From assembly GCA_016714535.1 (NCBI GenBank), contig JADKDR010000006.1, positions 264,514 to 328,513 on the forward strand: DNA of 64,000 nucleotides, given 5' to 3'. The translations under genes were made by a program, and so were the position numbers. Positions 39,978-58,700 of the stretch are shown here, in pieces. Source of the stretch: Bacteroidota bacterium (GTDB lineage: Bacteria; Bacteroidota; Bacteroidia; AKYH767-A; OLB10). The notes beneath the pieces are model-generated. The model saw nothing but the letters and a program-made list of their open reading frames with translations. It did no database searches and had not been told where the DNA came from. Every line of letters starts with the position of its first letter. The first letter of the stretch is position 1.

Positions 39978-40556
39978 TTTATTGTTAGCTTTTTGGTTGA
40001 ATTGTCACAAGCTGTGTTCAACAGATAAGTACAACTCTTACCTTGTTTTGTAAAGGTACTTCATTTGGAGATAAGTAACTAAATTTTCTTATAAGTCTAT
40101 TATCGATTTCGTTTTCAACTCTTTCGACTTCTCTTTTTTTGATTAAAGTGAAGTCTGTTATTTTTGAAATGAATTATCAAAAAACGCATTTCTATTTTTC
40201 CATAGTAGCATTATCTTGCAATGTGAATGGTCCGGTAAAATAAGTTATATTTTAAAGTGCTTCTGCTATTTTTTCTTGATGTGTAAATGCCTGGTCATTG
40301 TCTAATATCATGGTTTTGCTTTGTGTCTTATATTTGTTTTAGTTTGTGCGAGAGATGTAACATAGATTTTTGCACCTAAGCGTCTTTTTGGAAAGTTGCG
40401 CTTGAGTTATCTACATGCAGTGCTCTTGTGCTCACTGAGTGTAATAGAAATCTGTGTTTGTATTTCGCCAGCAATTATATAGGCTTCAATTTTGCACCTC
40501 CTATATTTTTTTATAAAAAAATTTACTCCTTCAGCAAAGAAGGCACATTATTAGAA

Positions 40557-41147
40557 CTACTTTTCCAACAACACAGTTTTCGTAAATACATTTTTCGAAT
40601 CTTTTGCCCTTAAAGTATAAATACCATTTGGCAAATGTGCCAGCGAAATCGAAAAAGTAAAATCGTGCGAAGTGATGTTTGATTGCTCCATTAATACTAC
40701 GCTGCCTTTGCTATCAATAATTTCGAAAGTGGCATTTCCGCTTAACACTGAATTTGAAATTTCTATGCTGATGACATCACTTGTTGGATTTGGTATTACA
40801 AATAATTCGTCACCTGTGTCCGTTACTCCAAACCTTGCAGTGCCAATTACTATAGAAGCATTGCGGCTGCACTTTTTGTTGTCCTTTACTGTTACTACAT
40901 AGGTGCCGGGTACAAGTCCTGTTGCTGTTTGTGTGGTTTTTATTGGCGATGTATTCCATGAATATCTGTAAGGACTAAAACCATTGCTGGGTGTGGCTGT
41001 TGCTGTTCCGTTGTTAAATAGAGGAGAAGTGGCTGGCGTGCCACTCATGGCGATTGCTATTTGAACCGGCTGTGTGAGCGTGTATGTTTGTGTTTTTGTG
41101 CATCCCGCAGCATCGGTTATGGTACATGTATAACTTCCTGCTTTCAA
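40557..41147 (-). pseudogene. Cargo gene 40557..42539, 3' segment: SprB repeats plus type-A CTD, downstream of an in-frame TAG
   Basis: Begins mid-repeat (…KAGSYTCTITDAAGCT…). CTD ends NGIYTLRAKDSKNVFTKTVLLEK. Same frame as 41193..41966. Confidence 0.6.
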
Positions 41148-41192
41148 GTTGGCAATGGAGTCGATAGTGGCACCTGTAGACCAAAGGAAAGA

Positions 41193-41966
41193 CTAGGGCG
41201 AAACACCGTTTGTTGGTGCTGCTTTACACACACCACTTTTTGCACCAAAGCAAGGCAGGTTTTTTTGTGTTGGGTTTGGACTTATGGCCACACTTGGGTT
41301 TATTATGGAGGTGGCAGTTATTGTGCAGCCATTGCCATCATTAACTATAACTGTATACGTGCCGGCAGCCAATGAACTAACATTTGCACTCGTGCTGCCA
41401 TTGTTCCAAAGGTAAGTATAAGGAGGTGTGGCGTTGCTGGCCAAAACATTTGCAGTTCCATTATTGAAGCCACATGTTGTATTCGTATTTGTAGTTGTTG
41501 CACTCAGCAACGTTGGCTGTGCAATATTTACATTACATGTTTTAGAGCATCCTGCATTATCGGTTATGGTAACTGTGTAAACCCCGGCAACCAAACCTGT
41601 TGCTGTGGGGGTGCTGCTGCTATTGGACCATAAATAGGCAAAAGGAGCAATGCCACTGGTTGTGCTTACACTTGCCTGGCCGCTATTGCCACCATTGCAC
41701 AATACGGCAGTTGTGGTTGCATTTGCTGTTACCGAATCTACTGTTACCATTACTGTGTCTTTCGCAATGACACCTGAGCGGGCATGAGTAACCGTAAGTA
41801 TATACGAAGTATTTACTGTTGGAGATGCCTGAGGATTGCTCATAGTACTCGATGATAAACCTCCGGCAGGCGACCAGCTAAAATTCAGATTTGAATTTGT
41901 TGACATACCAATAGCTGCAGTGTTTCCTTTGCAAATAAGTTTATCTGCACCGGCTGAGGCGGCCAC
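41193..41966 (-). pseudogene. Same cargo gene, middle segment with SprB repeats, ending at an in-frame TAG where a repeat Tyr is expected
   Basis: …PTNGVSP-TAG-SFLWSTGAT…; the repeat consensus is …G.SPYSFLW…, so TAC/TAT to TAG. The segment upstream of 41966 carries further frameshifts. Confidence 0.6.
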
Positions 41967-42053
41967 AGTTGCGTTTAAATTTACATTATCAATGTATAAA
42001 TTATTGCCAAAGCGACCACGATTACGAAATGCAATATTTACTCCGTTGCCTAT

Positions 42054-42539
42054 AAAACCATTGCCGGCTAATGAAGGTGATGTATCGTACCATCCCGTTA
42101 ATACTAAATTGCCCGGGCGGGTTACATCAACTATTGTAAATCCATCGCGATAATATGAGCTTACTGCATACTCATCTCTAATATATGTGTTGTGAATGAT
42201 TGATCCTGAAGCCGGATTCTGAGATTGTATTTTGTCAAGTAATTGAACGTTGTTGGGTCCGAAACATTATATGCAGCAAGGTATGAGTTGCTTACTTCGT
42301 CAGTTGTAAAACTACATTCTGTGACCCATTGAGCCAGGTGTTATGACAAAAAGCATTGGGTGTAGTTTGTTTGTTTGCAGCACACTGTAACTACCCTCGC
42401 TAAGGGATCCGCCATTGGTTCGTGTCCACAAGATTGCACCATCAGCATCTAGCCGCACTAAAAAGAAATCTGCAAATCCGTTACCATTGCTTTTGGTATA
42501 ACCGGCTATAATAAACCCTCTATCAGCTGTTGCATTTAT
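42054..42539. repeat. Copy 1 of a ~487-bp near-identical segment shared with 54564..55050
   Basis: Direct comparison of the two stretches: a handful of substitutions and two 1-bp homopolymer-length differences. Homology stops exactly at the IS1380 left end. Confidence 0.8.
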
Positions 42540-42560
42540 CCGCAAATAGACAATCCACAT
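42312..42560 (-). pseudogene. Same cargo gene, N-proximal beta-propeller-repeat fragment, cut off at its 5' side by the IS1380 element
   Basis: …INATADRGFIIAGYTKSNGNGFADFFLVRLDADGAILWTRTNGGSLSEGSY…, an SBBP-like beta-propeller repeat. This Met-initiated ORF runs into the IS left inverted repeat. Confidence 0.5.
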
Positions 42561-43972
42561 GTTAAAAACTTTGCATATTCTTTATTGACAATACACCTAA
42601 GGATTTTGACCTTGTAACCAAAACTTACAAATAATATGTGTTATAAAATTGAATATTCTGATGATAAAGTAAGTGCATGGGGAGGTTTTTCGTTAATGAA
42701 AAAATTCAATGATAAAATTGGTTTGAAAAGCGTTTTGCAAAATCTACACATTCCCGAAAGCAAGAGTAATAACAGGTTTGAGAATGAGGAAATCATTGAA
42801 AGTTTCCTATTGTCAGTATGGTTAGGCTGTTACAAATTTTCACACACACATGTGTTAAGATTAGATGATACGCTAAAAAAAATATTTGGATGGAAACAAA
42901 TACCAAGCGATACAACCTACAAACGATTTTTTCAAAAGTTTAATCAAGGCATAAATAATGAGGTGTTTCCAACATTGCAAGAATGGTTTTTTAATCAATT
43001 GCAGTTTGATAATTACGCATTAGACTTGGACTCTACCGTTATTACTCGGTATGGTGATTTGCAAGAAGGCAATCATAAGGGCTATAATCCAACCAAAAGA
43101 GGTAGAGCCTCTCATCATCCATTATTTGCTTTTTTAGGCAACGAGCGCATGGTTGTAAACAGTTGGCTTAGAAGTGGCGATACCTCAAGCGCACATCAGT
43201 GTAATGAGTTTTTAAACGAAACATTATCCATACTCAAAAACAAAACAATTGGTTTGCTACGTGCCGATTCTGGTTTTGCAAGCGATTTAATTTTTAGACA
43301 TTTAGAGCAAGAACAAATTCCATACGTGATAGCGGGGAGAATGCATTATCCATTACAAGATAAGATAAAGCAACAAAAAACCTGGACAGCTATCGGATTA
43401 GGAATTTGGATTAGCGAAACAAGGTATAAGGCATCAAAATGGGAATCAGAACGTAGGGTTATTGTTATAAGACAAAGCGTTGATTTAAGGCCCAAAGCAA
43501 CAGGTAAAAAACTAAAGCTGTTTGATGATAAGGAATATTATGAGCAATACCGGTATCATACTTTTTATACAAATCAAACGCTACCTGCAACACAAATTTG
43601 GGAACAATACAAAGGAAGGGGCGATTGCGAAAATAGGATTAAAGAACTTAAATATGATTTTGCATTAGAAGGTTTTAATATGAAAGATTTTTTTGCAACA
43701 GAAGCAGCATTGCGTATGGTAAACTTAGCTTACAATATCATAAGTTTGTTCAGACAGGTTAGCTCCGAAAAGCCAAATCATCAACGATTACAGACATTAA
43801 GACTCAACTGCTATGCAGTTGGAGCTTGGATGACAAAAAAAGGAAATAGTAGGATATTGAAATTGGCTGTTCCAATAAAAAAACGAAAATGGATGGATGG
43901 AATTTTTGGCAAAGTGGATAGTTGCTCTTTCCCTTTATCATTAATAACTTAAATCCTACTGTCTATTTGCGG
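42540..43972 (+). mobile_element. IS1380-family insertion sequence (~1.43 kb)
   Basis: Inverted repeats CCGCAAATAGACA (42540-42552) and TGTCTATTTGCGG (43960-43972) bracket one transposase ORF. The flanks are ATTTAT and ATAAAT, inverse of each other rather than direct, so there is no target-site duplication. Confidence 0.7.
42636..43952 (+). CDS. IS1380-family DDE transposase (438 aa)
   Basis: …HKGYNPTKRGRASHHPLFAFLGNERMVVNSWLRSGDTSSAHQ… matches the conserved GYNPKK…FAF…RSGNT region of IS1380/ISEcp1-type transposases. Confidence 0.7.
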   Translation: MCYKIEYSDDKVSAWGGFSLMKKFNDKIGLKSVLQNLHIPESKSNNRFENEEIIESFLLSVWLGCYKFSHTHVLRLDDTLKKIFGWKQIPSDTTYKRFFQKFNQGINNEVFPTLQEWFFNQLQFDNYALDLDSTVITRYGDLQEGNHKGYNPTKRGRASHHPLFAFLGNERMVVNSWLRSGDTSSAHQCNEFLNETLSILKNKTIGLLRADSGFASDLIFRHLEQEQIPYVIAGRMHYPLQDKIKQQKTWTAIGLGIWISETRYKASKWESERRVIVIRQSVDLRPKATGKKLKLFDDKEYYEQYRYHTFYTNQTLPATQIWEQYKGRGDCENRIKELKYDFALEGFNMKDFFATEAALRMVNLAYNIISLFRQVSSEKPNHQRLQTLRLNCYAVGAWMTKKGNSRILKLAVPIKKRKWMDGIFGKVDSCSFPLSLIT

Positions 43973-44133
43973 ATAAATATCTTTTTTAGGGCGGCAACAC
44001 TTTAGAGCCGGTTTCGATAATATTGCTTATTACAATACGACAAGAATTAGTCAATTATTTTAAAAACTAACGGAGATTTAAACCATCGTCATAATATTTT
44101 AAACTAACGTAACTTAAATGGCCTGTTAAATGC

Positions 44134-44162
44134 AAAAAGCCGGAAGAGTAAAACTCTTCCGA
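44134..44162 (-). terminator. Rho-independent terminator of the 44199..47690 gene
   Basis: Minus strand: CGGAAGAG-ttttac-CTCTTCCG followed by a T-run. Confidence 0.6.
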
Positions 44163-44198
44163 CTTTGCTTTGGTTGTAATACTAATTTGTAGGGCAGG

Positions 44199-47100
44199 CT
44201 ATTGCTTTACAAATTTGCTGGCATGAACTTCCTTATCGAGCTGTGTTGCTTTGATGATGTACATGCCAGTTTGAAGGCTGCTCACATCAATTACAACTTC
44301 TTTTGAACCTGTAGCAGAAGTAGTTTGCAACAAGCGACCATCAAGAGCATAGATGCTGAACTGCGTGGTCATGCCTTCGTCAACATCGTTTATAGTCACC
44401 GTTAAGCGACCTTGAGTTACTGGGTTGGGGTGGGTAGTCATAAAATTGGATTTGATTATTTCACCTGTTAATCTCATTGGGCCGCATGGAGTATTAGAAG
44501 AATAGCTATCTCCGGTTCCGCACGAAACCGTTTGATTACATTCTGCTGCCCAGGCAATTCCAATGAAAATATCATCACACGAAAACGTTGGTAGAGTAAT
44601 ATCAAAAACCTGGGAGGTTTGATTTAGGTATAAAGGAGATGGTAATATAATCGTTTGGCTGTAAGGTGCAGCACACATACCACCCTGTAAGTGAAAACTA
44701 CCAACACATGGAAGGAAGGTGTTTTTAACAGCAAATGTAAAATGACGCTCAAATGTAATGGGACCTGTTTGTACACAAGTAATTTGTGGGTTCACAAAAT
44801 CAATACAACCATTTGGACAATCGGGAAGATTAATGCAATGTGAACTTCCGTTTGCACAACTTGTTTGATTGTCACTTGCACCAAGCCCAAGGCAAATATA
44901 TTGACCTCCAAATGCAGGCATCCATTGATTAGTAAATCCACACAGAGGTTGATTAGGAGCCAAGCCAGGTAGCGGTAGTGTGTAGGTTACTATATTACCT
45001 GTTTGACTTACGGTAACACCGGGAGGTAATGAAGGAAAACTTATTAAAGAATTTGTCCCCACATTCATATGAAATAATGTAATATTCGAACTCCTCTTAT
45101 TGACAAGACAAAAAGAATGTGTTGGTGCACCACCTGGACCACAACTGAATGATTCATTGGTTAATTCTACACATTCATTACACCCTGATGGTGTAATGTT
45201 TACAACTGCACTGTTTGAACAAAATACTGAACTATTAGAACCCCCTACCCGATGTGCACGTAGGCAAATATCATTAATGGCAGTAAGTCCATTTGTTGCA
45301 CCTGATGGAACAAGCGCGTCAATAAAAACTTCCATGCTTGCACCCGGTGCAAGTTGATTAGCTCCCGAAGTCATCGACATCGATAGCATGTTTGTAAAAG
45401 TTCCGCTGGCTGCACAAGGTGTACCATTACAAATAATTTGGTTGCAGCCATCTGAGGTATATAAATCAGGTCCGACAAAATCCACACCACTTGCAGCGGT
45501 ATATGCCAAATGCGAAGTGCTGTTGCGCGCTACAGGTATACAACTAGAAGTAATATCTCCCGGACGCGGGCGCGTATTGAACAAGCGTATATCGTCAACT
45601 GTAACATTGCCATTGTTGGTAAGGGTCAATCGGTACTGAACTGGCGATCCGGCTGAGGCATCTGTTGTTGTGCTAAAATTCCCGCCATTGGTGCATCGAA
45701 CTTCGAGCATTGCCGTTAGCAGAAGGCTTTCGTTTACTTCTATATTTACAACATTTGAAACTTTCGGTACAGTATAATTTGTTCCTGTAAAATTAAAAGT
45801 ATTTTGAACGGTAGTGGATGCTGTGAAAGGTCTAACTCTTGCCTGAAACTCAACAATAAATTTATTGGTTAAATCACAAGATGGCAAATTTGCATTGCTT
45901 ATTGTAATTGTTTGTCCATTAATATTTGATGCAACTGGGGAGCTACCTGGAAATGCAAAATTTGGCATAAAGGAGGAAGAGGTGGGACATATCTGATTCC
46001 CGTAATAATATGCTATTGATTGAGGTAGGATATCAAAAATATTACTCACTGCATCGGTTATCAAACCATTAGTTACATTGGCCGAACCGGTATTCCATGC
46101 ATTTAATCTAAACGTAACTATATCATTTGGCAATACCGATTGATAATAACTGCATGAGCCATTGTTTACAATCCATTTTTGAACTTTTACATTTGGTTTA
46201 CATGCAACAGGTTTTTTCGAAATTGTTGATGTCCTGGTTTCATTTGCATTATTTAGTATATAATTTACGGTAGCTGTATTTGAAACATTCACATTGACTT
46301 GCGCTGTACTATTTAAAGAAAAATCGAGACTATTGGTTATGGTTCCAAAGGCTGGGAATGTGGAGTATCTCCATTGTAGTTGCGTTATTCTACAGCCTGG
46401 TAAATTACAATTCATTACATTATTAGACTGAACAAAAATATGAAGCGGAACAGGTGATGGATATTGCACCAAGCCACTATTGGTTGTAGCATACCATAAC
46501 TCCACTGTTGCACCTGCTGGTGGCACAGGTGTCGTAATTTTTCTTACATCAACAGTAGCTGGAATATTATCGCTGATTACCACATTGCTGGTTGGTAAAT
46601 GGGTATTGGAAGCATTAAATTGAATATTGTATTGTGGGTTTTTACCTACTTGCCCTTCTTCATAGCATCCGCCCGGGCAATACTCAGTTCCTTGCAAAAG
46701 TGTTTTGCTTAATGTTGGCTGAGTAATAACCGCATCACAACATATACTAGTAAATTGAAAAGTTCTTTGAGTTGATTGCATGCATTTTCCAGCTTGACAG
46801 CAGTCTGTTCCACTTAGCCTTGCCCTTGTTACATAGTTTGTATTCAACTGAAATAAGCTACATGGAAATTGAACTTTAAAAGTTATCAGATGTGAAATTT
46901 CAGGTTGTAAATAATTTGGTACCGGTATATTGGCTGACCAACGTGTTACACCATTAGGGGCATTACCACAACCCGGACTCGTATTTGAAAAAGCAAGAGG
47001 CACCCCTTTATAAATCACTCCATGTACAATTGCACCTGTAGGCAGGTCAAGGTATATACGGGGATTTCGTAATCGAATTGCTCCCCTGTATGTTTGCGGA

Positions 47101-47690
47101 TGAGTTAGGTTTGTAGTGATATTAAAAATGCCTCCTAAGCACCGGCTTGCTGCCGCTGCAGGAGTACCTACGATCCATTGGTGGTATGCATTTATTTCAC
47201 GCTGTAAATTGTTTGAATTAAATGTGCCGCATCCGCCATTATTTCCAGTGAATGTGACTGATGACGAAAAAGTTATTTGATTTAAACCATAGCCCGGAAG
47301 TGGCCAACCTCCTTCACAAATTTCTCCCCACTTGGTGCGCAGGTTAAATTGAATATTGGCAACACTACCCGGAGTACCTGTAATAACTAATGTTGTAACA
47401 GAATTGTTTTGATTAAAAGATGTGTTTGGTGGAAAAATGCTACTCGTATTTCCTCCTTGAAAAAATGTGCCACCTTCTATTAAAACATTACTCCAATCAA
47501 TACATGAATTATTGCCGGTAAATGACAATGTTGTTTGCACCTGATTACAATTTAAGGGAAAAGTAAATGCCAGATCAACAATAAACGGGTCATCACTTAG
47601 CAATGGATTAGGGCCTTGAAATGTCAAGTTTTGCGTTCGTGATACGAATGAACATACCAAAAGCAGCAGGATTGAAAATAATTTTTTCAT
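44199..47690 (-). CDS. Large T9SS cargo protein (~1,160 aa) with a type-A CTD
   Basis: Signal peptide MKKLFSILLLLVCSFVSRTQN. CTD ends GMYIIKATQLDKEVHASKFVKQ. The start was moved to 47690 because the ORF-track extension 47691..47750 overlaps the conserved non-coding promoter cassette. Confidence 0.75.
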   Translation of the reverse strand: MKKLFSILLLLVCSFVSRTQNLTFQGPNPLLSDDPFIVDLAFTFPLNCNQVQTTLSFTGNNSCIDWSNVLIEGGTFFQGGNTSSIFPPNTSFNQNNSVTTLVITGTPGSVANIQFNLRTKWGEICEGGWPLPGYGLNQITFSSSVTFTGNNGGCGTFNSNNLQREINAYHQWIVGTPAAAASRCLGGIFNITTNLTHPQTYRGAIRLRNPRIYLDLPTGAIVHGVIYKGVPLAFSNTSPGCGNAPNGVTRWSANIPVPNYLQPEISHLITFKVQFPCSLFQLNTNYVTRARLSGTDCCQAGKCMQSTQRTFQFTSICCDAVITQPTLSKTLLQGTEYCPGGCYEEGQVGKNPQYNIQFNASNTHLPTSNVVISDNIPATVDVRKITTPVPPAGATVELWYATTNSGLVQYPSPVPLHIFVQSNNVMNCNLPGCRITQLQWRYSTFPAFGTITNSLDFSLNSTAQVNVNVSNTATVNYILNNANETRTSTISKKPVACKPNVKVQKWIVNNGSCSYYQSVLPNDIVTFRLNAWNTGSANVTNGLITDAVSNIFDILPQSIAYYYGNQICPTSSSFMPNFAFPGSSPVASNINGQTITISNANLPSCDLTNKFIVEFQARVRPFTASTTVQNTFNFTGTNYTVPKVSNVVNIEVNESLLLTAMLEVRCTNGGNFSTTTDASAGSPVQYRLTLTNNGNVTVDDIRLFNTRPRPGDITSSCIPVARNSTSHLAYTAASGVDFVGPDLYTSDGCNQIICNGTPCAASGTFTNMLSMSMTSGANQLAPGASMEVFIDALVPSGATNGLTAINDICLRAHRVGGSNSSVFCSNSAVVNITPSGCNECVELTNESFSCGPGGAPTHSFCLVNKRSSNITLFHMNVGTNSLISFPSLPPGVTVSQTGNIVTYTLPLPGLAPNQPLCGFTNQWMPAFGGQYICLGLGASDNQTSCANGSSHCINLPDCPNGCIDFVNPQITCVQTGPITFERHFTFAVKNTFLPCVGSFHLQGGMCAAPYSQTIILPSPLYLNQTSQVFDITLPTFSCDDIFIGIAWAAECNQTVSCGTGDSYSSNTPCGPMRLTGEIIKSNFMTTHPNPVTQGRLTVTINDVDEGMTTQFSIYALDGRLLQTTSATGSKEVVIDVSSLQTGMYIIKATQLDKEVHASKFVKQ

Positions 47691-47720
47691 AATAATATTG
47701 TTTAATTGATTTGATACCAA

Positions 47721-47806
47721 CAAACGTATATTGCTACCGTCAACCAACAAAGCAATATCATACCTGTGCTAATTTTATTTAAACTAACGTTGGTATTAAA
47801 CAATCG
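47721..47806 (-). promoter_or_regulatory. Copy A of a conserved ~90-bp upstream cassette holding a Bacteroidota sigma-A-type promoter and a CTAACG-containing motif
   Basis: In coding orientation: CGATTGTTTAATACCAACGTTAGTTTAAATAAAATTAGC.CAGGTATGATATTGCTTTG-N19-TACGTTTG, i.e. a -33 TTTG and a -7 TAnnTTTG. About 90% identical to 49764..49859. Confidence 0.55.
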
Positions 47807-47827
47807 ATTTCTAAGATAAATCATCAT

Positions 47828-47860
47828 AAAAAAAAGCCGGAAGAGAAATTTCTCTTCCGG
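47828..47860 (-). terminator. Rho-independent terminator after the orphan CTD fragment
   Basis: A-run followed by the perfect palindrome CCGGAAGAGAAATTTCTCTTCCGG. Confidence 0.6.
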
Positions 47861-47895
47861 TTTATTACTGCTCTTGACATATAGTGTTGAGAAAA

Positions 47896-48141
47896 CTATT
47901 CCTTTACAAATCTACCATTATGCACAACCTGATCCAATTGCATTGCTTTAATAATATACATACCTGCAGGTAATTTGCTAACATCAATGGCCTGTGCTTT
48001 TGTACCGGTTATTGTATTTGTTTGCAACAAGCGGCCATCAAGTGTATATATGCTTTGGTGCGTTACCATATCATCAGCTACATTACTAGTATTAAATTTT
48101 TGTATGCAATGAATGGTTTGGTTGGCTCGAATTTTAATCAT
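47896..48141 (-). pseudogene. Orphan T9SS CTD: an 81-aa fragment with no upstream cargo domain
   Basis: …IYTLDGRLLQTNTITGTKAQAIDVSKLPAGMYIIKAMQLDQVVHNGRFVKE, a close paralogue of the CTD of the 44199..47690 gene. The upstream region is non-coding. Confidence 0.6.
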
Positions 48142-48281
48142 GATTCTATTTATTTCTTAAAATCATTGGAATTTTCTGCAAACTCACCTTTTCCTTTATC
48201 GCTCATTTTAAAATTTCAAAACTCAACTTTTATAATAAGTATAAATAAGCATCTTTCCATTATAAATTTTAATAAAAAAGC

Positions 48282-48308
48282 AAAAAAGGCTGCTATAGAT
48301 GCAGCCTT
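48282..48308 (-). terminator. Rho-independent terminator of the 48332..49732 gene
   Basis: AAGGCTGC-tatagat-GCAGCCTT with a flanking A/T run. Confidence 0.6.
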
Positions 48309-48331
48309 TCCTTATAATAATAAGTAACAAT

Positions 48332-49732
48332 TTAGTTCCTGATAAATTTAGAAGTTTCAATTACAATATTATTTTCAAGTACTTGTATTAAATAAATCCC
48401 CTTTGCAAAACTAGAGACATCAATTTTCTCTTCAGTGTTGCCCGCTACAGTTAATGATTGCAATAAACGACCATCAATTGAAGTAATTTGAACTTCATTC
48501 TTAGCATTTTCATCGCCTGACAAGACCGCAATATTCAAGAAATTTTCTGAAACGGGATTCGGATAAATGCTTAATATACCGGAGGTTGATTCATCTATGC
48601 TTCCTAAGCGAGGGTTGCAAGTGGTAAATGAATTGTAACAAGCTTTAGTTGAAAAACTACTAGTACAAGTTGGATAAATCGCTCTTACTTTCCAGGAAAA
48701 ACATTTATTGAGGAAGAAATTTGTAATTGTCCAATTATTTGTTGACACATTAATCGTATAAGTATTAGCATTGGTTAAAGTAGGGCAACAATCTCCATCA
48801 TTAGTTCTAATTTGAATTTGATAACTTGTAGCACCCTGCATTGCATTCCACGTTAATATTTTATTTCCACCTTGATTTAATCCGCATGTTAAAAAGGTAG
48901 GCGGTGCACATGTTGGTAATACACAATTAGGCAACGGCCCACAAAAGCTACATGGTGCAGCTGCACCGCCACCAGGGTTCTGAAAACATTCTTGTTGTCC
49001 ATAGCATACTTTGCCACAAGCAGACTCCAATACCCGAATTACCAAATAACACTTTCCAACCTGAACAGGAAATAAGAAATCATCAGCATGATTACTGCTA
49101 TCTAAAAATGTATAATAATTATTTATTTGATTATATTCATAAATTATCCAAGTTTGGTGAATTTCCAAATTTCCATATTTATTATGACCACTTGGAAACA
49201 AGTTGTTGACAAAACCATTTCCTACAATAAATAGCGCAAACGCACCATTTAATGAATTACATGGAGTTGAATTCTTAATGCAAACAAGATCAAAAGCCTG
49301 AAAACTCTCTTCATAGGGATCACAGGCATTGGAAACTGCCAATCGTACTTTGTAATTTCTACTATGCGATAATTTATAATTTGGCTGAGTTGCCAATAAA
49401 AATTGTGACAAGTTTATAGAGAAGACTTGTCCATTATTCCATGCAATACTGTTCATATTATATCCATTAATAGTTCCCCATACGAAAGGCGCAAAAGGAC
49501 CGTCAGCATCTTCTCGTTCTTGAATGGCAATTTGAAAGCTCGTCTCGAATTGACTTCCACCACCAATTAAGTATATGTCTTCCCCTAAACAAAACTCAGT
49601 CATTGGTTGCCCATACTGGGAATTGCTCAAATAGAAACTGCTTATCGGTGGATCACATTGGCCAAAGGATTTTTCAAAAATACTAACGCTAATTAGCATT
49701 GAATAAAATAATACATAAAATAATTTTTTCAT
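48332..49732 (-). CDS. Cys-rich T9SS cargo protein (466 aa) with a type-A CTD
   Basis: Signal peptide MKKLFYVLFYSMLISVSIF. CTD ends GIYLIQVLENNIVIETSKFIRN. Confidence 0.75.
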   Translation of the reverse strand: MKKLFYVLFYSMLISVSIFEKSFGQCDPPISSFYLSNSQYGQPMTEFCLGEDIYLIGGGSQFETSFQIAIQEREDADGPFAPFVWGTINGYNMNSIAWNNGQVFSINLSQFLLATQPNYKLSHSRNYKVRLAVSNACDPYEESFQAFDLVCIKNSTPCNSLNGAFALFIVGNGFVNNLFPSGHNKYGNLEIHQTWIIYEYNQINNYYTFLDSSNHADDFLFPVQVGKCYLVIRVLESACGKVCYGQQECFQNPGGGAAAPCSFCGPLPNCVLPTCAPPTFLTCGLNQGGNKILTWNAMQGATSYQIQIRTNDGDCCPTLTNANTYTINVSTNNWTITNFFLNKCFSWKVRAIYPTCTSSFSTKACYNSFTTCNPRLGSIDESTSGILSIYPNPVSENFLNIAVLSGDENAKNEVQITSIDGRLLQSLTVAGNTEEKIDVSSFAKGIYLIQVLENNIVIETSKFIRN

Positions 49733-49763
49733 AATTTAATTTTTTTAATTGTTTAACATGGGA

Positions 49764-49859
49764 CAAACGTATATCCCCACCGTTAATCAGCAAAGCAATA
49801 TCATACCTGCGCTAATTTTATTTAAACTAACGTTGGTATTAAACAATCGTAAAAATTTA
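49764..49859 (-). promoter_or_regulatory. Copy B of the conserved upstream promoter cassette
   Basis: See copy A. It lies immediately upstream of the 48332..49732 start codon, with the same -33/-7 spacing (19 nt). Confidence 0.55.
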
Positions 49860-49862
49860 TTT

Positions 49863-50627
49863 TTAACGCACCTTGCTGAATAGCTCCATGAACTCGGCAC
49901 GCTTGCGAACCGCAAGCGGCACAAGGGTTTGGTCGCGTAGTTGTATTTGATTGTTGTTAGTTAGATTACTAACATAGTCCATGTTTATCATGTGCGATTT
50001 GTGACAAAGAAAAAAACCATGATGCTGCAACGAGGCGGTGTATCTTCCTATATTGTAACTACTTGTTAGTGTGCCTTTCGATTTTGTATGTATGCGCGAG
50101 TAGCGATCCCATCCTTCTATATGTATTATATCTTTTATATCAATCAACTCTGTTTGATTATGATTATATACAGCCAGTTTGTGTTCTCTCACATTGCTTT
50201 TTTCCATGTTGTACAATAGCGCATCGTACAGTTGTTTTTTTTGTTTCAGCTCCAGACGTTCGCGCACAAGTTGCAGCGCAGCCTTTATATCTTCTACAGC
50301 TACCGGCTTTAGCAAGTACGCCAATGCCAGGCAACGTATGGCATCAAGCGCATACTCCTGATGGCTTGTTATAAATACTATTTCAAAATGGATAGTTGAA
50401 AATCGCTTTATTAATTCAAACCCTGTTTCCTGAGGCATTACAATATCCAAGAAAACAACATCTGGATTGGTTTCAATTATTTTTTGATAGGCTTGCTCAA
50501 CACTATTTGCGGTTCCCACAATTTCTACTTCGGGCAGATGTTCGGTCAATATGTATTGCATGGCTTGCAATACTTTATTCTCATCATCTACCAGCAGGCA
50601 TTTTATTTTACTAGTCGAATTTAACAT
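49863..50627 (-). CDS. LytTR-family response regulator
   Basis: REC domain plus LytTR domain. It overlaps the upstream kinase gene by 7 bp. Confidence 0.85.
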   Translation of the reverse strand: MLNSTSKIKCLLVDDENKVLQAMQYILTEHLPEVEIVGTANSVEQAYQKIIETNPDVVFLDIVMPQETGFELIKRFSTIHFEIVFITSHQEYALDAIRCLALAYLLKPVAVEDIKAALQLVRERLELKQKKQLYDALLYNMEKSNVREHKLAVYNHNQTELIDIKDIIHIEGWDRYSRIHTKSKGTLTSSYNIGRYTASLQHHGFFLCHKSHMINMDYVSNLTNNNQIQLRDQTLVPLAVRKRAEFMELFSKVR

Positions 50628-53422
50628 ACGTTACTAAAAATTAGTTTTACTACTGTTCCCTTATATTGAGGCGCATTATCATCCAAATTGGTTATGGTAC
50701 ATTGCAGAGCTCCCGGCTTAATACGATTTACAATTTCCAGTTTTTCCTCAAATATTTCCATGGCGCGTGAGCTTATTATTGAGTTGTTGTGCTGTTTAAA
50801 TTTTTTGGAATTTTCAACGCCAACTCCGTTGTCGGTTATGGTTATGTGCAAGTCAGCTTTTATTTTGGTAAATGTAAGGTCTAAAATTCCGTGGTCAATA
50901 CGGTGAAACAAGCCATGCTGTATTGCATTTTCTACAAATGGTTGCAGCAGCATGGTATTTATTTTTACATGCTCAAGGTCAATGTTCGGGTCAATGCTGA
51001 TGTGATATTCAAACTTGTCTTCGTAGCGTAACTTTTCTAACGTCAAATATCTTGTGAGTAATTCTATTTCATCCTTTAGGTTGATAAATGATTTGCGCGA
51101 GGCTTCAAGATACTGCCTTACCAACTTCGAAAAACTTGTAAGAAAATGCTCAGCCTCGGCTTTCTTATTTGCCTGTATATATGACTGAATGGCCGCCATA
51201 GAGTTGTATATAAAATGAGGATTCATTTGGGATTCGAGTGCATTTAATTTCAACTCCTTCATACTTAACTCCAATGTTTTAATTTTATTTTCCCGTTCGG
51301 CCTTTGCCTGTATCCTATTGCGATATAGCCATATGACAGCGCCTAACACCACAAAATTCACTAATAAGCGAAATAGCAATGTTCCATACCATGGGACTTT
51401 TACAGAAAATTTTTTCTCTAATCTTGCGAGCACATCTCCGGTAAATTTATTTGTTGCTGTAACGGTAATTGTATACTCTCCTGATTTCAACTCCTTTAGT
51501 CGCAAGTAATTGGTTTCAAGCAACGTTGGCTCAGTATTTTCATTAAGTATATAGGAGTATTGTATTTCATCTACATAATCAAAATTAAACAAACTAAAAT
51601 ACATTTCAATATTTTCGAACGTGTTAGGCGCACTGAATAAGGGCAAAGACGTAAACTCAACACTATCGCACATAGCCTTGTATAATAATAGGGCTTTAGG
51701 CTTAGGCGGATTTGGATTAAATGCTATTTGCAGAATTTCATTTCGCATAATTGCGTTAAGCGTATCATTGTTAATATAAAAGTCTATAAGGTCATTACCA
51801 TTAATACCATCCTGCGTAGTATATGCTATACGGGGCGAGAGCGTATCATTTTGCAATCGATAGTAATATATACCTACATCATTTGAAAACACAATGCCCC
51901 CCTTGGCAAACAAAAATTTATTTACCGTCAGGTTGGTTGATACTTTTCTAATTGACCCTGAAGAAATTTTATAAATCCCCTGCCCATCAGTGCCAATAAA
52001 TATATCACCTGTTTGTGGATGTTGATTTACATGAGTTATAGAAAGTGTTTTAAAATAAGGTTCATATGAAATGGTATCGTTACAAATAAAATTCCTGTTT
52101 AAGACATAGATATTGTATTTAGAAAAAAAGTAAATGATGCCATCCTTGTCAATAAATGAAAGCTGGAAACGTTCATTATCAACAAACAGTGGCAGTTCCC
52201 TAATCGAATCATGCACAAGACAAAGTAATGATGCCCGTTGCATTTGCCGGCTTATTAGCAATGTATCCTTATTGTAATAATTAACTCTACTTGGGACAGA
52301 TGGTTCAATACCGGTAAATTTCTCCATATATTTATAAGGAAGCCATTTGCCACTTTTATTTTCAAGCATAATTGGTTTGGAGAGGGTAATTATAAACTCA
52401 TCATTATGAAAAAAGGGAGAAGCAAATCTTACTTTCGGAATAGTGTACTTATAATTAAATGTAAATGATGCAGTGTCAAACGAATAGATATTGTTATCCA
52501 TATCCGCATACAAGTTTGATTTGTTATATGGTATTATTGAACTTAATGGAGATGCAGTGTTTAGATCAAGTCGCTTCAGGCTTCTGTTTTTCTTTTTATA
52601 CAAGTACACCCCCTGTTCGCGCGTAGTTGCCCATATGTTGCCATCATTATCTAAGTAAACTCTATTTAATGCATTTGGCAAGGTGTATTGATACTCCATT
52701 TCTAAACTATCCTGATTAAATAAGTGCATTCCTATGCTGGATGATAAAATCAGTTTCCCATTTTTAAAAACAGGCGATCGATAATGAATATCCTTTGCCG
52801 AATATAATGTATACGTTTTTTTACTCTTCAACAACGTCACCTCTGCTGTATCCCTAAAGGCATTATATTCAATAGTATAATTATTATTGTAATAAAAATT
52901 TGTTTGGGTATTCTGTATTGAAGGCTTACTGACCTTTGAAACGAATTTATAATTATTGTTTTCATACATAAGTACAAAACGAATGGACGTGTCATTGCAA
53001 TAAATATTTCCATTTTGATCAGACTCTAATAAGTTGATCGAATAAGTTCCCGGCAGATCAACCGCCTTTTTTACCTCCTCATTTTCGATATAATATAATG
53101 AACGGTCATACACATGAATCCATATTTTATTTAAAGAATCAATGCTTAAAAACCAAATATCATTGGAGGGCAAGCCATCGTTGATTGAAAAATTTTTGAA
53201 CCTGTGTCCATCATATCTACTTATGCCACGTGTGCTATAAAACCACATAAAGCCTTGGTAGTCTTGCAGGCAACCATATACTGAATTGGAAGCAAGGCCA
53301 TCCCCTTTGGTAAAAACCCGATCAGGCTTTCCCAATCGTTCAATGATATGTTGTCCATTTACACTCCTTAAAGTAACCAAAGCGAGTATGCACGCAACAA
53401 GAAATATGACTAATGGTTTCAA
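50621..53422 (-). CDS. Sensor histidine kinase with a periplasmic beta-propeller / Y_Y_Y sensor and a LytS-type (His_kinase PF06580) core
   Basis: Signal peptide, propeller repeats, one TM (LLFRLLVNFVVLGAVIWLY), MNPHFIYNSMAAIQ and an HATPase domain. Confidence 0.8.
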   Translation of the reverse strand: MKPLVIFLVACILALVTLRSVNGQHIIERLGKPDRVFTKGDGLASNSVYGCLQDYQGFMWFYSTRGISRYDGHRFKNFSINDGLPSNDIWFLSIDSLNKIWIHVYDRSLYYIENEEVKKAVDLPGTYSINLLESDQNGNIYCNDTSIRFVLMYENNNYKFVSKVSKPSIQNTQTNFYYNNNYTIEYNAFRDTAEVTLLKSKKTYTLYSAKDIHYRSPVFKNGKLILSSSIGMHLFNQDSLEMEYQYTLPNALNRVYLDNDGNIWATTREQGVYLYKKKNRSLKRLDLNTASPLSSIIPYNKSNLYADMDNNIYSFDTASFTFNYKYTIPKVRFASPFFHNDEFIITLSKPIMLENKSGKWLPYKYMEKFTGIEPSVPSRVNYYNKDTLLISRQMQRASLLCLVHDSIRELPLFVDNERFQLSFIDKDGIIYFFSKYNIYVLNRNFICNDTISYEPYFKTLSITHVNQHPQTGDIFIGTDGQGIYKISSGSIRKVSTNLTVNKFLFAKGGIVFSNDVGIYYYRLQNDTLSPRIAYTTQDGINGNDLIDFYINNDTLNAIMRNEILQIAFNPNPPKPKALLLYKAMCDSVEFTSLPLFSAPNTFENIEMYFSLFNFDYVDEIQYSYILNENTEPTLLETNYLRLKELKSGEYTITVTATNKFTGDVLARLEKKFSVKVPWYGTLLFRLLVNFVVLGAVIWLYRNRIQAKAERENKIKTLELSMKELKLNALESQMNPHFIYNSMAAIQSYIQANKKAEAEHFLTSFSKLVRQYLEASRKSFINLKDEIELLTRYLTLEKLRYEDKFEYHISIDPNIDLEHVKINTMLLQPFVENAIQHGLFHRIDHGILDLTFTKIKADLHITITDNGVGVENSKKFKQHNNSIISSRAMEIFEEKLEIVNRIKPGALQCTITNLDDNAPQYKGTVVKLIFSNVC

Positions 53423-53489
53423 TTACTATTTGAGGCTAAATTTTTCAGGAGATGAAAGTAATTAATTCTGTTCTATTAAACAGAGGAAC

Positions 53490-53521
53490 AAAAAAAAAAC
53501 GGCACAATTTAAATTGTGCCG
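53490..53521 (-). terminator. Rho-independent terminator of the 53543.. cargo gene
   Basis: A10 followed by CGGCACAATT-taa-ATTGTGCCG, a perfect 10-bp stem. Confidence 0.7.
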
Positions 53522-53542
53522 GTCTATCTAAAGAAAAGAATT

Positions 53543-54265
53543 TTAATTTTTAATAATTCTGGTTTTATAAACTACAGCACCATCATTCACCTCTATCATA
53601 TAAATGCCTGCAGTTAGATTTTGCAGCGAGAGCATCGTAAGATTTTCTCCTTCACTAATGTCAATGTTAGATTGGCTAACAGGCTTTCCAAGCATATCAA
53701 ATACGCGAATGGTGCCGGTAGTCTGCATTTCGCTAGTGAATAACAAGGCAACGTCATTTTCTGATGGATTAGGGAAAACTTGCAAATCACCCTCATCACT
53801 ATATTTATTAAACGCTTCATTTAAAGGCATTGATTTTACAAAGTTTGTACTGCTTACGTCCACACGCAGTTTGTAGCAAACAGTATTATTGAACGCTCCA
53901 TTATATCCATTTACACGTACCTTATAGGTAGCAGCTGTAGTAGCATTACGGATGATAGTTTCATTGGCCGTGCCGTTGTTCTGTGATTTAGCCAACAGCG
54001 CATTGCTGCTGCTATACAGACGTAAATCGTAATCTGCAGGCAAATTCTGAAGCGTAACTTTTAATTTTGTATTGGGTGAAACAGTAGCAAATGTTAACCA
54101 ATCTAAATCGCCAGACACGCCAATCAAGGCAAATATATCAATGCTTACAGGTATTGCTTTGGCAGTACTTGATGAATTGTTGGTTTCATATACATCGGTG
54201 CAAGCTGCACCTACCGGTACCAATGCTACGTTTAAATTTGTTAAGCTACCATTAGTGAGAACCAC
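53543..54265 (-). CDS. C-terminal part of a mosaic T9SS cargo gene: CarboxypepD_reg-like domain plus type-A CTD
   Basis: …VVLTNGSLTNLNVALVPVG… and a CTD ending GIYMIEVNDGAVVYKTRIIKN. The upstream region 54266..55239 encodes LVIVD-like and SBBP-like propeller repeats, but it is broken by an in-frame TGA and two 1-bp indels. Confidence 0.6.
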   Translation of the reverse strand: MVLTNGSLTNLNVALVPVGAACTDVYETNNSSSTAKAIPVSIDIFALIGVSGDLDWLTFATVSPNTKLKVTLQNLPADYDLRLYSSSNALLAKSQNNGTANETIIRNATTAATYKVRVNGYNGAFNNTVCYKLRVDVSSTNFVKSMPLNEAFNKYSDEGDLQVFPNPSENDVALLFTSEMQTTGTIRVFDMLGKPVSQSNIDISEGENLTMLSLQNLTAGIYMIEVNDGAVVYKTRIIKN

Positions 54266-55239
54266 ATCTGAAGTAACTTTAGTGGTATAACCCGTTTTAC
54301 TAACGGTTACTGTATATGTTCCGGAAGTTACCGTTCCTGATTTATACTCACCATTAACTGCCGAAGTTTCGTTTAAGGTGGCTGGTCCGGTGATGCTAAC
54401 AGTAGCACCTGCTATGATTAATCCCGTTTGCTGATCGGTAATAACACCTTCGATATGGCAGGCCCGTGTATACGTAGGTGTTAATACGAATAAACCATTT
54501 TCAATATCACTAACGATTACGTTACCCGATGCAAAATAAGGGTATACACCCCATGCGCCATTAAATCCATTGCCGGCTAATGAAGGTGATGTATCGTACC
54601 ATCCCGTTAATACTAAATTGCCCGGGCGGGTTACATCAACTATTGTAAATCCATCGCGATAATATGAGCATACTGCATACTCATCTCTAATATATGTGTT
54701 GTGAATGATTGATCCTGAAGCCGGATTCTGAGATTGTATTTTGTCAAGTAATTGAACGTTGTTGGGGTCCGAAACATTATATGCAGCAAGGTATGAGTTG
54801 CTTACTTCGTCAGTTGTAAAAACTACATTCTGTGACCCATTGAGCCAGGTGTTATGACAAAAAGCATTGGGTGTAGTTTGTTTGTTTGCAGCACACTGTA
54901 ACTACCCTCGCTAAGGGATCCGCCATTGGTTCGTGTCCACAAGATTGCACCATCAGCATCTAGCCGCACTAAAAAGAAATCTGCAAATCCGTTACCATAG
55001 CTTTTGGTATAACCGGCTATAATAAACCCTCTATCAGCTGTTGCATTTATTCAATAACCTTCATCGTCATATTCCCCACCAATGGTTTTAGTAAATAGGG
55101 TGTCACCATTGATGTCAAATTTACAAACGTATACATCTTTAAATGCATTGTCTACAATAGAGCTGCCACATGCTGCAAATTTCCCATCGGCCAATGCTAC
55201 TTCAGAATTGCCGGTACAATTAAATCCATTATTTATCAT
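54266..55239 (-). pseudogene. Upstream, disrupted part of the same cargo gene (propeller repeats, Met start at 55239)
   Basis: MINNGFNCTGNSEVALADGKFAACGSS…EGY-TGA-INATADRGFIIAGYTKSYGNGFADFFLVRLDADGAILW…, then …NTYIRDEYAVCSYYRDGFTIVDVTRPGNLVLTGWYDTSPSLAGNGFNGAWGVYPYFASGNVIVSDIENGLFVL. The frames shift at runs GGGG (54768) and AAAAA (54831). Confidence 0.5.
54564..55050. repeat. Copy 2 of the ~487-bp near-identical segment (see 42054..42539)
   Basis: Direct comparison. Confidence 0.8.
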
Positions 55240-55642
55240 GATGTTGAAATTGGAATTTTGCGCATTGGTAACATAATAGCTAGCACAAAATACAATTAGG
55301 CAGGATAGTAAATACTTAATTGGCCAACAACTGAATTTAAGTTGCCAGTGTGTGTGTAAGCGAAAATGGTTTGCGATGCAATACTGCTGATACTCTCAAC
55401 TTCGCATACAGTAACCGGTACATTGCCGGATTTGGAGTTTTGATTTTTCATACGTTTGTCTTTTAATTTGTAAATACTGGTAAAAACTCGGAATACAATG
55501 TGCCCATAGGCAAATGATTTTTTTGCAAATACAAACTAACGTGATTTATTTTTACAAAAGCAAAATTAATTTGTAGAAGCCATCTGCTTTTGCACCAGAG
55601 TCAAATAACTATTTTAATTTTTTCAATAACATCCGCATTTTG

Positions 55643-55709: not shown

Positions 55710-58700
55710 CTACTTCTTAATAAACCTTACAGTTTCAGTCATACCATTCAACTGAACGTTTACTAGATACATTCCGGCTGCAAACTGAGTCATGTTATAC
55801 AAACGTGTGTTATTACCTGCAAAGGCTGCTTCCTCTAAATTAAATACCACTCGGCCAATGTTATCATACACAGTTACGCGTACTGTACCATCTTCAGTCG
55901 CTTCAAAGTTCATATTCACCATTCCTTCTCCTGGATTAGGATAAATAGTTACCATACCGGTAGTGCTTACGATGTCGCTGGTAATCTTTGGAGGTGCAGG
56001 GCAAGTTAACATACTTGAAGTGCTACCTTGTATACCACCGGCCCATGCTCTCAATATATTCCATACCGCTGTACTACACTGCGCAGATGTATAAGGACTT
56101 GAACATGCACCAAGTTTCTTATTAGCTTCGTTTAATACTTGCGTTACAGTCATACCAGCAAATGGCGCTGTACCATATATTAGGTCACCTAATGTTACTG
56201 TTGGCACAGGCGCAAAGTTCGGATCGTATGCATCAAATACCACACTTAGTTTCAAGCTCACTACCAATGCTGCAAACGAACTGTTAAACGAGCCACTTGT
56301 TGGGTTGTTCAGGTTAGAGCTTAACTGTAATGCACCACCTGTTGCAGGTTGACCGGTTAAGAAATTGCGCACTGCCGTAGAGCTGCTTAAGGTAAGAGTC
56401 TTGCTTCCACCGCAACCGCCACCTACAACCAAACTAGCCGGGAATGCGGCCGGGAAATGGTTAGTCAGGTAAGTACCTATGTTATTGCCTGCGGCCGGTG
56501 TTGTCCAACCTACTGCATTTCCATATGTACCAGGATTCGGGAACTCAGTATGGAATGGTGTACCATTGCTACACAAGAAAGGTGGCTGAGTAATCGTTAC
56601 TGTTGCTTGGGTTAAGCATCCACTTGCATCCGTTACCGTTACCTGGAATGTTCCTGCGGTTAATCCGATTACATCTTGAGTGGTCCTTACTGGTATGGTA
56701 TTCCACTGATACGTGTAAGTACCGCCTCCACCGCTTACGCTAATGTATGCTGCTCCATTGTTACCTCCATAGTTGGTTACATTGCTTGTGCTATCAACAA
56801 CTACAACAATTGACGTTGGTGCTGTTATTACACAACTGCTGCTGTTACTGCAACCGTTTGCATCTGTTACCGTTACGGTATACGTACCCGGAGGCAAGTT
56901 GCTAATGCTACTGCTTGTAGCAAAAGTATTCCACACATAAGTGTATGGCGCACTTCCACCTGCTGCGGCTACACTTGATGCACCGTTGCTTCCATTATTG
57001 CAAGTAGTATTAGTACAGCTTTGGCTCAATACGATAGCGTTAGGTTGCGTTAACACTACACATAAGGTGATGGTACATCCATTGGCATCTGTAACCGTTA
57101 CGGTATGTGGTCCTGCTGGCAGGCCAGTGCGGTCTTCGGTAGTAGCTCCGCCTGTCCATATGTAAGTATATGGGGCCGAACCTCCGGTTACGGTAATGTT
57201 AATACTACCATTGCTGCCACCGTTGCAAGCTGGATTTACATGCGTTTCGGTAATGTTAAGTCCGCTTGCCGGAGCTGTAACTTCATAGCTTGCCGTGGCA
57301 GTACATCCGTTCGCGTCTGTTACGGTCACCGTATATATTCCACCCATCAAGCCTGTTGCTGTTTGAGTAGTTTGACCGTTACTCCACATATAACCGTATG
57401 GCATAGTTCCGCCACTTACCGTAGCCGTTGCAGTACCATTGCTATTTCCATTACAACTTGCATTGGTACCACTAGCAGTTACAGCTAATGCTGCAGGCTG
57501 CGTTAAGGTAATACTTACTGTTTGTGTACATGTTCCATTACTTACTGTTACTGTATAGATACCTACTCCAATACCCATCAAGTCTTCAGTTGTTGCTCCG
57601 GTACTCCATGTATACGTGTAAGTGCCTAGTGGATTGGTGGTCAGGTTAATGCTACCATCCAAACCTCCATTACAACGGATGTTATATCCGCCTGCATAGG
57701 TTGGGCTATTCAAACTAGCGGTAAAGCCACCGTTATCTGTAACCTTCACACATACGCTTATTACACATCCGTTGGCATCAGTTACAGTTACAAAGTTATT
57801 ACCTGGACATAAGCCGGTAGCAGTTTGGCCAGTCTGACCGCTGCTCCACAAGTAACTGTATGGCATTGTTCCTCCCGTAACATTTACCGTTCCTTCGCCA
57901 TTGCACAATCCGCAAGTTGAGTTAACGCTCGAAGTGCTTATTGTATCCAGTACTGCCGGTTCTATTATCTCTCCTGATGCGGTTACGGTACATCCATTAG
58001 CATCGGTTACCGTTACGGTATACATTCCTGCTCCGGTATTTACAATATAGCTTAAGCTTGCTCCTGTGTTCCATGCATAACTGTATGGCGCTGTTCCTCC
58101 GGTCACTGCTATGCTTATGCTGCCATCCATCATTCCATTACAACTTACATTTACTGCTGTAGCTGTAGCTTCTAATAAGGCTGGCTGAGTTATCGTTCCG
58201 CTTAAGCTTGCTGTACATCCACTGCTGTCAGTTACAGTTACAGCATAGATTCCTGCACCGGCCGTAATCGAAGTAGTAGTCATACTATTACTCCAAGCAT
58301 AGGTGTAAGGAGCACTGCCACCATTCAGATTAGTGATTGATAACGTTCCATTTCCTCCGTTGCATAATGGATTAACTGCACTCAAGGTAAACTGTATGGA
58401 TGCCGGTTGACCAACAAACGCTGTACAAGAAGTAGTACATCCTTGATTATCGGTAATTAAAACAGTATAAACACCTGCTGTTAAGCCTGTATTAATTGCG
58501 TTGGTTCCTCCATTACTCCATTGGTATACATACGGTGGTGTGCCTCCAAATACATTAACTGTTGCAGTTCCTATTGCCTGTCCGCAAGCAGTAGGCGTGC
58601 AAACTGTGTTGCAATTAAGTGCTGCACTTTGTGACATGATAATGGCAACCTGAACGTTACAACCCATACTATCAGTTACGGTAACATACACTGCCCCTGC

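Follow-up and report, generated by a model that had tools for sequence, protein, structure and literature searches.

A near-identical repeat between two type IX secretion cargo pseudogenes of a Bacteroidota bacterium, a probable rearrangement relic beside an IS1380-family element

Introduction

Rearrangements bordered by insertion sequences (ISs) are well known in bacteria and include adjacent deletions, recombination between IS copies and duplications, and microhomology-mediated illegitimate recombination or end joining yields gene fusions and pseudogenes. Here, a stretch of 64,000 nt from a Bacteroidota bacterium (assembly GCA_016714535.1, contig JADKDR010000006.1, positions 264,514 to 328,513 of the forward strand; hereafter the window, in which all positions are given) was analysed for a near-identical direct repeat that links two genes resembling cargo of the type IX secretion system (T9SS), termed locus 1 and locus 2, and whose copy in locus 1 abuts an IS1380-family element. 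The repeat is most probably the relic of a rearrangement between two dead T9SS cargo genes, left as debris of IS-associated illegitimate recombination.

With IS-bordered rearrangements this region shares a tract edge at the exact terminus of an IS, the lack of a target duplication and unrelated DNA on the other side of the element, as well as an IS that is multi-copy and near-identical between copies; it differs from them in that the other tract edge derives from microhomology-mediated illegitimate recombination and not from a transposase. With microhomology-mediated joining it has in common that both junctions not involving the IS lie on 4–6 nt of common sequence and that homology does not extend further; noteworthy here is only that one junction product was copied again. 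The kind of event is ordinary, and no open biological question is advanced by it. The closest described system within the same IS family is ISEcp1, whose one-ended transposition mobilises adjacent genes such as blaCTX-M, the DNA moved being that on the side of the right inverted repeat (IRR) (PMC12589106). Shared with ISEcp1 units are the IS family as assigned by a transposase hidden Markov model, short terminal inverted repeats (IRs) starting with CC and foreign DNA lying against an IS end; the differences are taken up below together with this alternative.

Extent of the repeat and divergence of its copies

The near-identical segment described by the sequence-only reading is real: pairwise alignment of 42054–42539 with 54564–55050 gave 99% column identity, BLAST of the window against itself returned the pair at 98.98% over 489 nt (the next best dispersed repeats in the 64 kb measuring 89–135 nt), and a repeat finder recovered the same pair independently (D5/D6). 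The copies are direct repeats 12.5 kb apart, with the minus strand as coding strand in both. In an extended alignment identity collapses sharply at both ends, and the copied tract proper comprises 42058–42539 in copy 1, the derived copy (482 nt, minus strand), and 54567–55050 in copy 2 (484 nt, minus strand), bases 42054–42057 being part of the native gene of locus 1. No third copy of the tract was detected within the 64-kb window at either the DNA or the protein level.

Regarding the differences between the copies, two of the four are one-base changes of homopolymer length (GGG at 42255–42257 against GGGG at 54764–54767, and AAAA at 42308–42311 against AAAAA at 54818–54822), in line with the earlier description of mostly homopolymer changes, but the other two are substitutions (T at 42161 for A at 54670, and T at 42488 for A at 54999); relative to copy 2, copy 1 thus has two 1-nt deletions and two substitutions. 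Substitutions separate the copies at 2 of 476 sites (0.42%), compared with 58 of 1831 sites (3.2%) between the window and contig L085 of a related strain, which places the event after the split from the L085 strain, where the 5' part of the locus 1 gene is kept. A recent duplication of a gene segment, as first proposed, therefore holds.

The internal fusion junction

The frame-corrected conceptual proteins of both loci were scanned against Pfam and NCBIfam, and that of locus 2 was searched against 5.8 billion proteins, yielding 694 matches at E <= 1e-5, the best 120 of which were examined. The tract combines about 166 nt of a delta-60/DUF5122-type propeller gene with about 320 nt out of the final third of a choice-of-anchor B gene. 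Its earlier designation as a propeller-repeat region consequently applies to the first third only, the remaining two thirds encoding the C-terminal part of a choice-of-anchor B domain. The corresponding model, TIGR04312, matched locus 2 at profile positions 227–363 of 364 only (100.6 bits, cutoff 100) and locus 1 at positions 227–339 (42 bits), where about 105 residues are kept; a full-length domain of about 364 positions is present at neither locus, both carrying fragments of family members. For the propeller part, PF17164 scored 19–23 bits against a cutoff of 27 and TIGR02608 19.9 bits against 76.5, only about 2.5 repeats being present, and BLAST gave 41–55% identity over about 100 residues to many PF17164-annotated proteins; from these alignments the relationship to delta-60/DUF5122 repeat proteins appears clear.

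Among the best 120 of the 694 matches, the conceptual protein of locus 2 has two disjoint classes of homologues, choice-of-anchor B proteins matching over the C-terminal part (the best being P0001, of 670 aa) and DUF5122/T9SS proteins matching over residues 37–147 only. In residue-level alignments the choice-of-anchor B homology begins at 'NKQTTPNAFCHNTW' in one frame, and the propeller homology ends at '...YSVLQT' in another. None of these 120 proteins has real homology on both sides of the junction: the choice-of-anchor B proteins are 51–76% identical to its right and 26–42% identical, with many gaps, to its left, and the DUF5122 proteins are 41–53% identical to its left and 22–29% to its right. 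High-scoring segment pairs that nominally cross the junction were rejected as alignment run-on on the basis of these one-sided identities. At the DNA level, homology to the intact homologue L005 begins at 54886 and at 42375, and the junction falls on a 4-nt overlap, AACA on the minus strand, inside GCAAACAAACAAACT, located at 54883–54886 in copy 2 and at 42372–42375 in copy 1. Metagenome DNA scans with a 30-nt pattern of the fusion junction returned no match.

The stop after ...MGHRM had been noted in both copies, and it is present in, and was inherited by, both; beyond that earlier observation, the stop is the read-through of an out-of-frame fusion of two unrelated genes and not a point lesion. 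Since both copies carry the fusion, the fusion is older than the duplication.

The junction sits in a (CAAA)3 stretch, GCAAACAAACAAACT on the minus strand (54870–54890 and 42360–42380). One extra CAAA unit, or a single base, at this point would bring the propeller and choice-of-anchor B halves into frame; the stretch is too short to argue for phase variation, and the TGA located upstream at locus 2 would remain.

Locus 2 as the source context

Locus 2 is a chimeric pseudogene at 53543–55320 on the minus strand, as delimited by domain scans and homologue alignments. It comprises, in order, a signal-peptide-like N-terminus, delta-60/DUF5122-type repeats, the last third of a choice-of-anchor B domain, CarboxypepD_reg, PPC and Por_Secre_tail, the sorting domain being detected by TIGR04183 (49.6 bits, cutoff 23) and also by PF18962. 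At the upstream edge of the tract P0006 aligns across (q45-146), and at the downstream edge P0001 aligns through to the C-terminus, gap-free at the edge. Natural homologues are hence colinear with locus 2 across both tract edges, which identifies locus 2 as the source context. P0001 (MBK8845730.1, a TIGR04312 T9SS protein, probably of the same metagenome-assembled genome (MAG)) is 73–76% identical to the 3' two thirds of locus 2 from 'NKQTTPNAFCHNTW' to the sorting domain and shares their domain order; compared with it, the first ~223 residues of the domain are replaced at locus 2 by unrelated propeller-repeat sequence, out of frame.

At least three inactivating lesions were detected in this gene. 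The N-terminus (IKYLLSCLIVFCASYYVTNAQ) opens with ATT at 55318–55320, and no in-frame ATG, GTG or TTG is present; an in-frame TGA occupies 55051–55053, where homologues have Ser, the change likely being TCA to TGA; and the out-of-frame fusion has cost the choice-of-anchor B domain its first ~223 residues. Neither an IS nor an IS footprint was found at locus 2, and no synteny was found between locus 2 and its closest intact homologues, L005 and L006, from which the ancestral layout could be deduced.

The TGA at 55051–55053 directly adjoins the upstream tract edge, that is, the position homologous to the point of IS insertion in copy 1.

Locus 1 and the joint at CAATGG

Locus 1, at 40557–42057 on the minus strand, is the 3' remnant of a large T9SS cargo gene, as delimited by domain scans and comparison with L085. 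It contains the end of an unnamed domain (...NGFIGNGVNIAFRNRGRFGNNLYIDNVNL), a PKD-like part, SprB repeats and Por_Secre_tail, with TIGR04183 scoring 48.9 bits (cutoff 23) and PF18962 also matching; the domain cut at the junction has no Pfam match. The downstream divergence of the two genes reported earlier is borne out, copy 1 leading into SprB repeats and Por_Secre_tail and copy 2 into CarboxypepD_reg, PPC and Por_Secre_tail. Locus 1, which the IS cuts off, lacks an N-terminus altogether, and an intact T9SS cargo ORF (open reading frame) with a signal peptide is absent at both loci. An in-frame TAG at 41193–41195 of locus 1 corresponds to a Tyr codon in L085; like the TGA and the ATT of locus 2, it is a lesion of the substitution type.

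The part of locus 1 lying outside the repeat was used as a query and matched P0121, at 95% identity, on the 5.8-kb contig L085 of an independent metagenome. This contig matches the window from 42063 down to 40233 at 96.2% and then diverges, and upstream its gene extends over a further ~2.7 kb that encode a signal peptide, a BNR/sortilin-like part, a PKD domain and the unnamed domain ending in ...NGFIGNGVNIAFRNRGRFGNNLYIDNVNL; this native 5' part occurs nowhere in the window. On the minus strand the bases at the junction read GCCGGCAATGGATTTAATGGC in copy 2, GCCGGCAATGGTTTTATAGGC in copy 1 and CGCTCAATGGTTTTATTGGC in L085, and in this three-way comparison copy 1 changes from copy-2-like to native sequence inside the shared CAATGG, a 6-nt microhomology at 42058–42063 (junction J1; CCATTG on the plus strand). 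The 'empty site' of a related strain can in this way resolve a rearrangement junction to the base.

Beyond this downstream edge no significant similarity between loci 1 and 2 was found, the observed score being reached by 12, 60 and 188 of 500 shuffles for flanks of 60, 120 and 300 nt, respectively. This bears on gene conversion, which had been offered as an alternative to duplication and according to which two old paralogous cargo genes were homogenised over 487 bp. The very high identity, restricted to a short inner part of two genes that belong to the same broad class, would fit such a process, and proteins in which choice-of-anchor B is followed by SprB repeats exist in nature, according to the Pfam annotations of matches. 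However, past the downstream edge the similarity is at the level of shuffled sequence, the native locus 1 gene in L085 has a wholly different, unrelated domain at the junction with only CAATGG in common, the upstream edge is an IS terminus and the tract holds a junction of non-homologous genes, all of which leaves gene conversion hardly credible.

Regarding other features of this gene, L085 has 1-nt and 4-nt frameshift indels of its own relative to the window (at L085 positions 4530–4560 and ~5410), outside long homopolymers; the gene may be decaying independently in the L085 lineage, or these may be errors in the L085 short-read contig. An orphan 89-nt copy of 40547–40635, 96.6% identical and in direct orientation, is located at 31556–31644. 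It covers the last 23 codons, the stop and a few further bases of the locus 1 gene (...LPNGIYTLRAKDSKNVFTKTVLLEK*) and lies in an intergenic region below an 814-aa T9SS gene, being a second short gene-fragment duplicate; such debris recurs here.

The IS1380-family element at the upstream edge of copy 1

On its upstream side, to which the sequence-only reading had assigned no element, copy 1 stops at the end of an IS1380-family insertion sequence of 1,433 bp at 42540–43972 on the plus strand, as established from its IRs, its transposase and the flanks of other copies. The last base shared by the repeats, 42539, directly precedes the left terminus of the IS at 42540. The single ORF of the element (42636–43952, plus strand, 438 aa) encodes a transposase matching NF033539 (transpos_IS1380) with 260.2 bits against a cutoff of 180 (E 2.7e-77, profile positions 1–416 of 419) and PF13701 (DDE_Tnp_1_4) with E 4e-47. 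The terminal inverted repeats are perfect over 13 nt, CCGCAAATAGACA at 42540–42552 and its complement at 43960–43972. The transposase model, the short IRs, the single ORF, a size within ~1.4–1.7 kb and the occurrence at multiple sites all agree with membership of the IS1380 family.

Four contigs from four other samples encode an identical transposase in IS DNA that is 99.8–100% identical, and the flanks of these copies diverge exactly at CCGCAAATAGACA... and ...TGTCTATTTGCGG, which fixes the ends of the IS to the base. The presence of several near-identical copies points to recent activity of the element. A search for the left end of the IS in metagenome DNA scans gave no match.

In the window the IS is flanked by TTTAT and ATAAA, an inverted pair, and no direct target duplication of 4–5 bp is present; the sole other copy with both flanks, on L001, has TTGAA/TTTAA, matching at 4 of 5 positions. 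Restoration of the ORF interrupted on L001 was considered as a means of obtaining the duplication length and proved uninformative, that ORF ending near the insertion anyway. The missing duplication is read here as a probable sign of rearrangement after insertion and not as an argument against family membership. To the right of the IS lies a short intergenic stretch with a terminator-like hairpin of the next gene, and the right flank has no significant similarity to the DNA upstream of copy 2.

Origin of the repeat and alternative explanations

The most probable origin, a rearrangement relic, would involve three steps. The first can be read directly from locus 2, where an out-of-frame join links the 5' end of a propeller-repeat cargo gene with the final third of a choice-of-anchor B cargo gene; the join lies on the 4-nt microhomology in the CAAA-rich stretch, and the resulting chimera is non-functional, in addition lacking a start codon and having a TGA. 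A copy of this chimera spanning the fusion point was then placed at locus 1. Illegitimate recombination at CAATGG apparently linked its downstream end with the 3' part of a further large T9SS gene, whose native 5' part would have been lost in the process. The upstream end of this copy is cut exactly at the terminus of the multi-copy IS1380-family element. As the IS has no target duplication and its right flank is unrelated, an IS-associated deletion or exchange is inferred, probably an adjacent deletion, unequal recombination between IS copies, or sister-chromatid exchange or transposition followed by end joining, and the 482 nt would be the remainder of an originally longer duplicated piece that was trimmed by the IS event. 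Copy 1 would later have gained its two substitutions and two one-base homopolymer deletions, the latter possibly being long-read consensus errors. In mechanism, one junction of copy 1 would be of the transposase type and the other a product of illegitimate recombination at microhomology. Regarding direction, the copy would have been made from locus 2, or from an identical copy of locus 2, to locus 1.

Several points weigh against this explanation. The order and number of the events are tentative, no related genome having been found in which the right flank of the IS or locus 2 has its ancestral layout. Instead of locus 2, another identical copy at a different place in the genome could have been the source. 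With the L001 flanks matching at only 4 of 5 positions, the argument from the missing duplication leans on knowledge of the family. The adjacency of the TGA to the tract edge at locus 2 has to be treated as coincidence. Lastly, a homopolymer error of +1 nt in the CAAA-rich junction, the same in both copies, would bring the two halves into frame; the out-of-frame state depends on the accuracy of the assembly, but the chimerism at the level of domains does not.

An alternative in which the IS itself carried the tract was considered unlikely. By analogy with ISEcp1, the element, once inserted in locus 2, would have made use of an alternative end at a distance of 482 nt and carried the fragment along into locus 1 by one-ended transposition. 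The IS belongs to the family of ISEcp1, a member that mobilises adjacent DNA (PMC12589106), the fragment is flush with the IS terminus, and the 5-mer ATAAA occurs at 42052–42056 and at 43973–43977, near both ends of the block formed by the fragment and the IS. This pair is judged to be a chance match in AT-rich DNA and not a target duplication; the left ATAAA is separated from the tract by base 42057, which belongs to native locus 1. Moreover, the fragment lies on the side of the left inverted repeat (IRL), upstream of the transposase gene, whereas ISEcp1 moves DNA on the IRR side, and the outer end of the fragment meets the native gene at 6 nt of microhomology, where a transposase-type joint would show a 5-bp duplication. 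The sequence right of the IS is no continuation of the locus 1 gene, no recognisable alternative IR was seen by eye at the outer end of the tract (the best candidate matching at 6 of 13 positions, 10 nt inside the edge), and locus 2 has neither the IS nor a footprint of it.

A broader proposal, for which the chances are slim, is that this IS1380-family element may carry flanking DNA on its IRL side or seed short templated copies of nearby genes, and that it thereby serves as a vehicle that grafts domain-sized fragments between the very large families of T9SS cargo and adhesin genes in environmental Bacteroidota. In a weaker variant of this proposal, (CAAA)3 at the internal junction would be a slippage site at which the gain of one unit brings the propeller and choice-of-anchor B halves into frame.

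That the second copy, or its junctions, were made by the metagenome assembler from a chimeric contig or a strain mixture, with one copy real, is very improbable. In its favour are the nature of the genome, which is a MAG, the origin of the closest database relatives from a CANU Nanopore assembly with one round of Illumina polishing, an isolated homopolymer slip in an otherwise intact giant SprB gene of the window, and the finding of no independent assembly of either locus with identical ORFs. Against it, copy 1 has two junctions of its own, each with a signature of biological origin, the exact end of the IS in one case and 6 nt of microhomology in the other, and both of its flanks differ from both flanks of copy 2, an arrangement that a simple misjoin over one true repeat cannot yield; L085, an independent metagenome contig, confirms the locus 1 sequence up to the microhomology, and two substitutions separate the copies. 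The hazard of assembly collapse raised earlier is reasonable for short reads but, given the two unique junctions of copy 1, cannot explain the structure.

Functional module shuffling between adhesin genes, the other interpretation put forward at the outset, is scarcely to be credited: a new expressed adhesin with a propeller/choice-of-anchor B part on an SprB stalk with a T9SS sorting domain might seem to be suggested by the agreement of the choice-of-anchor B frame with that of the downstream SprB gene at CAATGG (...AGNGF|IGNGV...) and by an ATG in the IS end (42560) that opens an ORF into the tract, but this ORF ends after 82 aa, where the inherited junction breaks the frame. Copy 1 also carries two more frameshifts and the TAG at 41193–41195, no signal peptide is present, only ~105 residues of the 364-position propeller domain remain, the two genes concerned are pseudogenes and the tract had its out-of-frame fusion before it was copied. 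A functional protein is not expected from either locus, and the finding is of use chiefly to annotation and quality control. Loci 1 and 2 look like mosaic adhesin genes and are pseudogenes, which should not be counted as functional T9SS cargo, and the repeat, as a probable rearrangement scar beside an active IS, provides no evidence for adaptive domain shuffling.

Assembly accuracy

A kinase of the window (MBK8847017.1) and the paralogue P0001 (MBK8845730.1) come from an NCBI MAG. The nearest database relatives derive from a CANU Nanopore assembly with a single round of Illumina polishing (PMC8012365), from a project to which the MAG of the window may also belong, and homopolymer indels are the typical residual error of Nanopore data (PMC9262707). 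The two homopolymer indels between the copies may accordingly be long-read consensus errors, and differences of homopolymer length inside repeats of long-read MAGs are unreliable. Exact-protein look-ups gave no record for P0001, P0128, the LytTR regulator, the 1021-aa kinase, the 466-aa protein or the ORF fragments of 82, 240 and 257 aa.

In the giant SprB gene (55710 to beyond 63999, minus strand, >2,700 aa), a 1-nt slip at a short A run at ~63250–63300 (...QTTANA|TGLTAGTW...) causes the 2,529-aa ORF to start in the middle of a repeat; it reflects either a consensus error of the long reads or a frameshift of very recent origin.

Surrounding region

The window has a GC content of 38.9% and is unusually dense in T9SS cargo genes with SprB repeats and/or Por_Secre_tail (for example at 10003–11703, 12467–15871, 19025–21850, 31787–34231, 44199–47750, 48332–49732 and 55710–63999), which are interleaved with sensor kinases and LytTR regulators. 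Two of these genes, encoding proteins of 1183 and 466 aa, have a common 5' region of ~135 nt at their starts (47675–47806 and 49717–49849; 87% identity, with a core of 87 nt at 92%), which could be a promoter, leader or signal-peptide module common to paralogues. At 10003–12319 on the minus strand, a 247-aa ORF with no Pfam match overlaps a 566-aa SprB/Por_Secre_tail ORF by 125 nt in another frame, and this may be another frameshifted T9SS cargo gene. A further direct repeat of 112 nt, with 87% identity, is located at 35332–35443 and 36189–36300.

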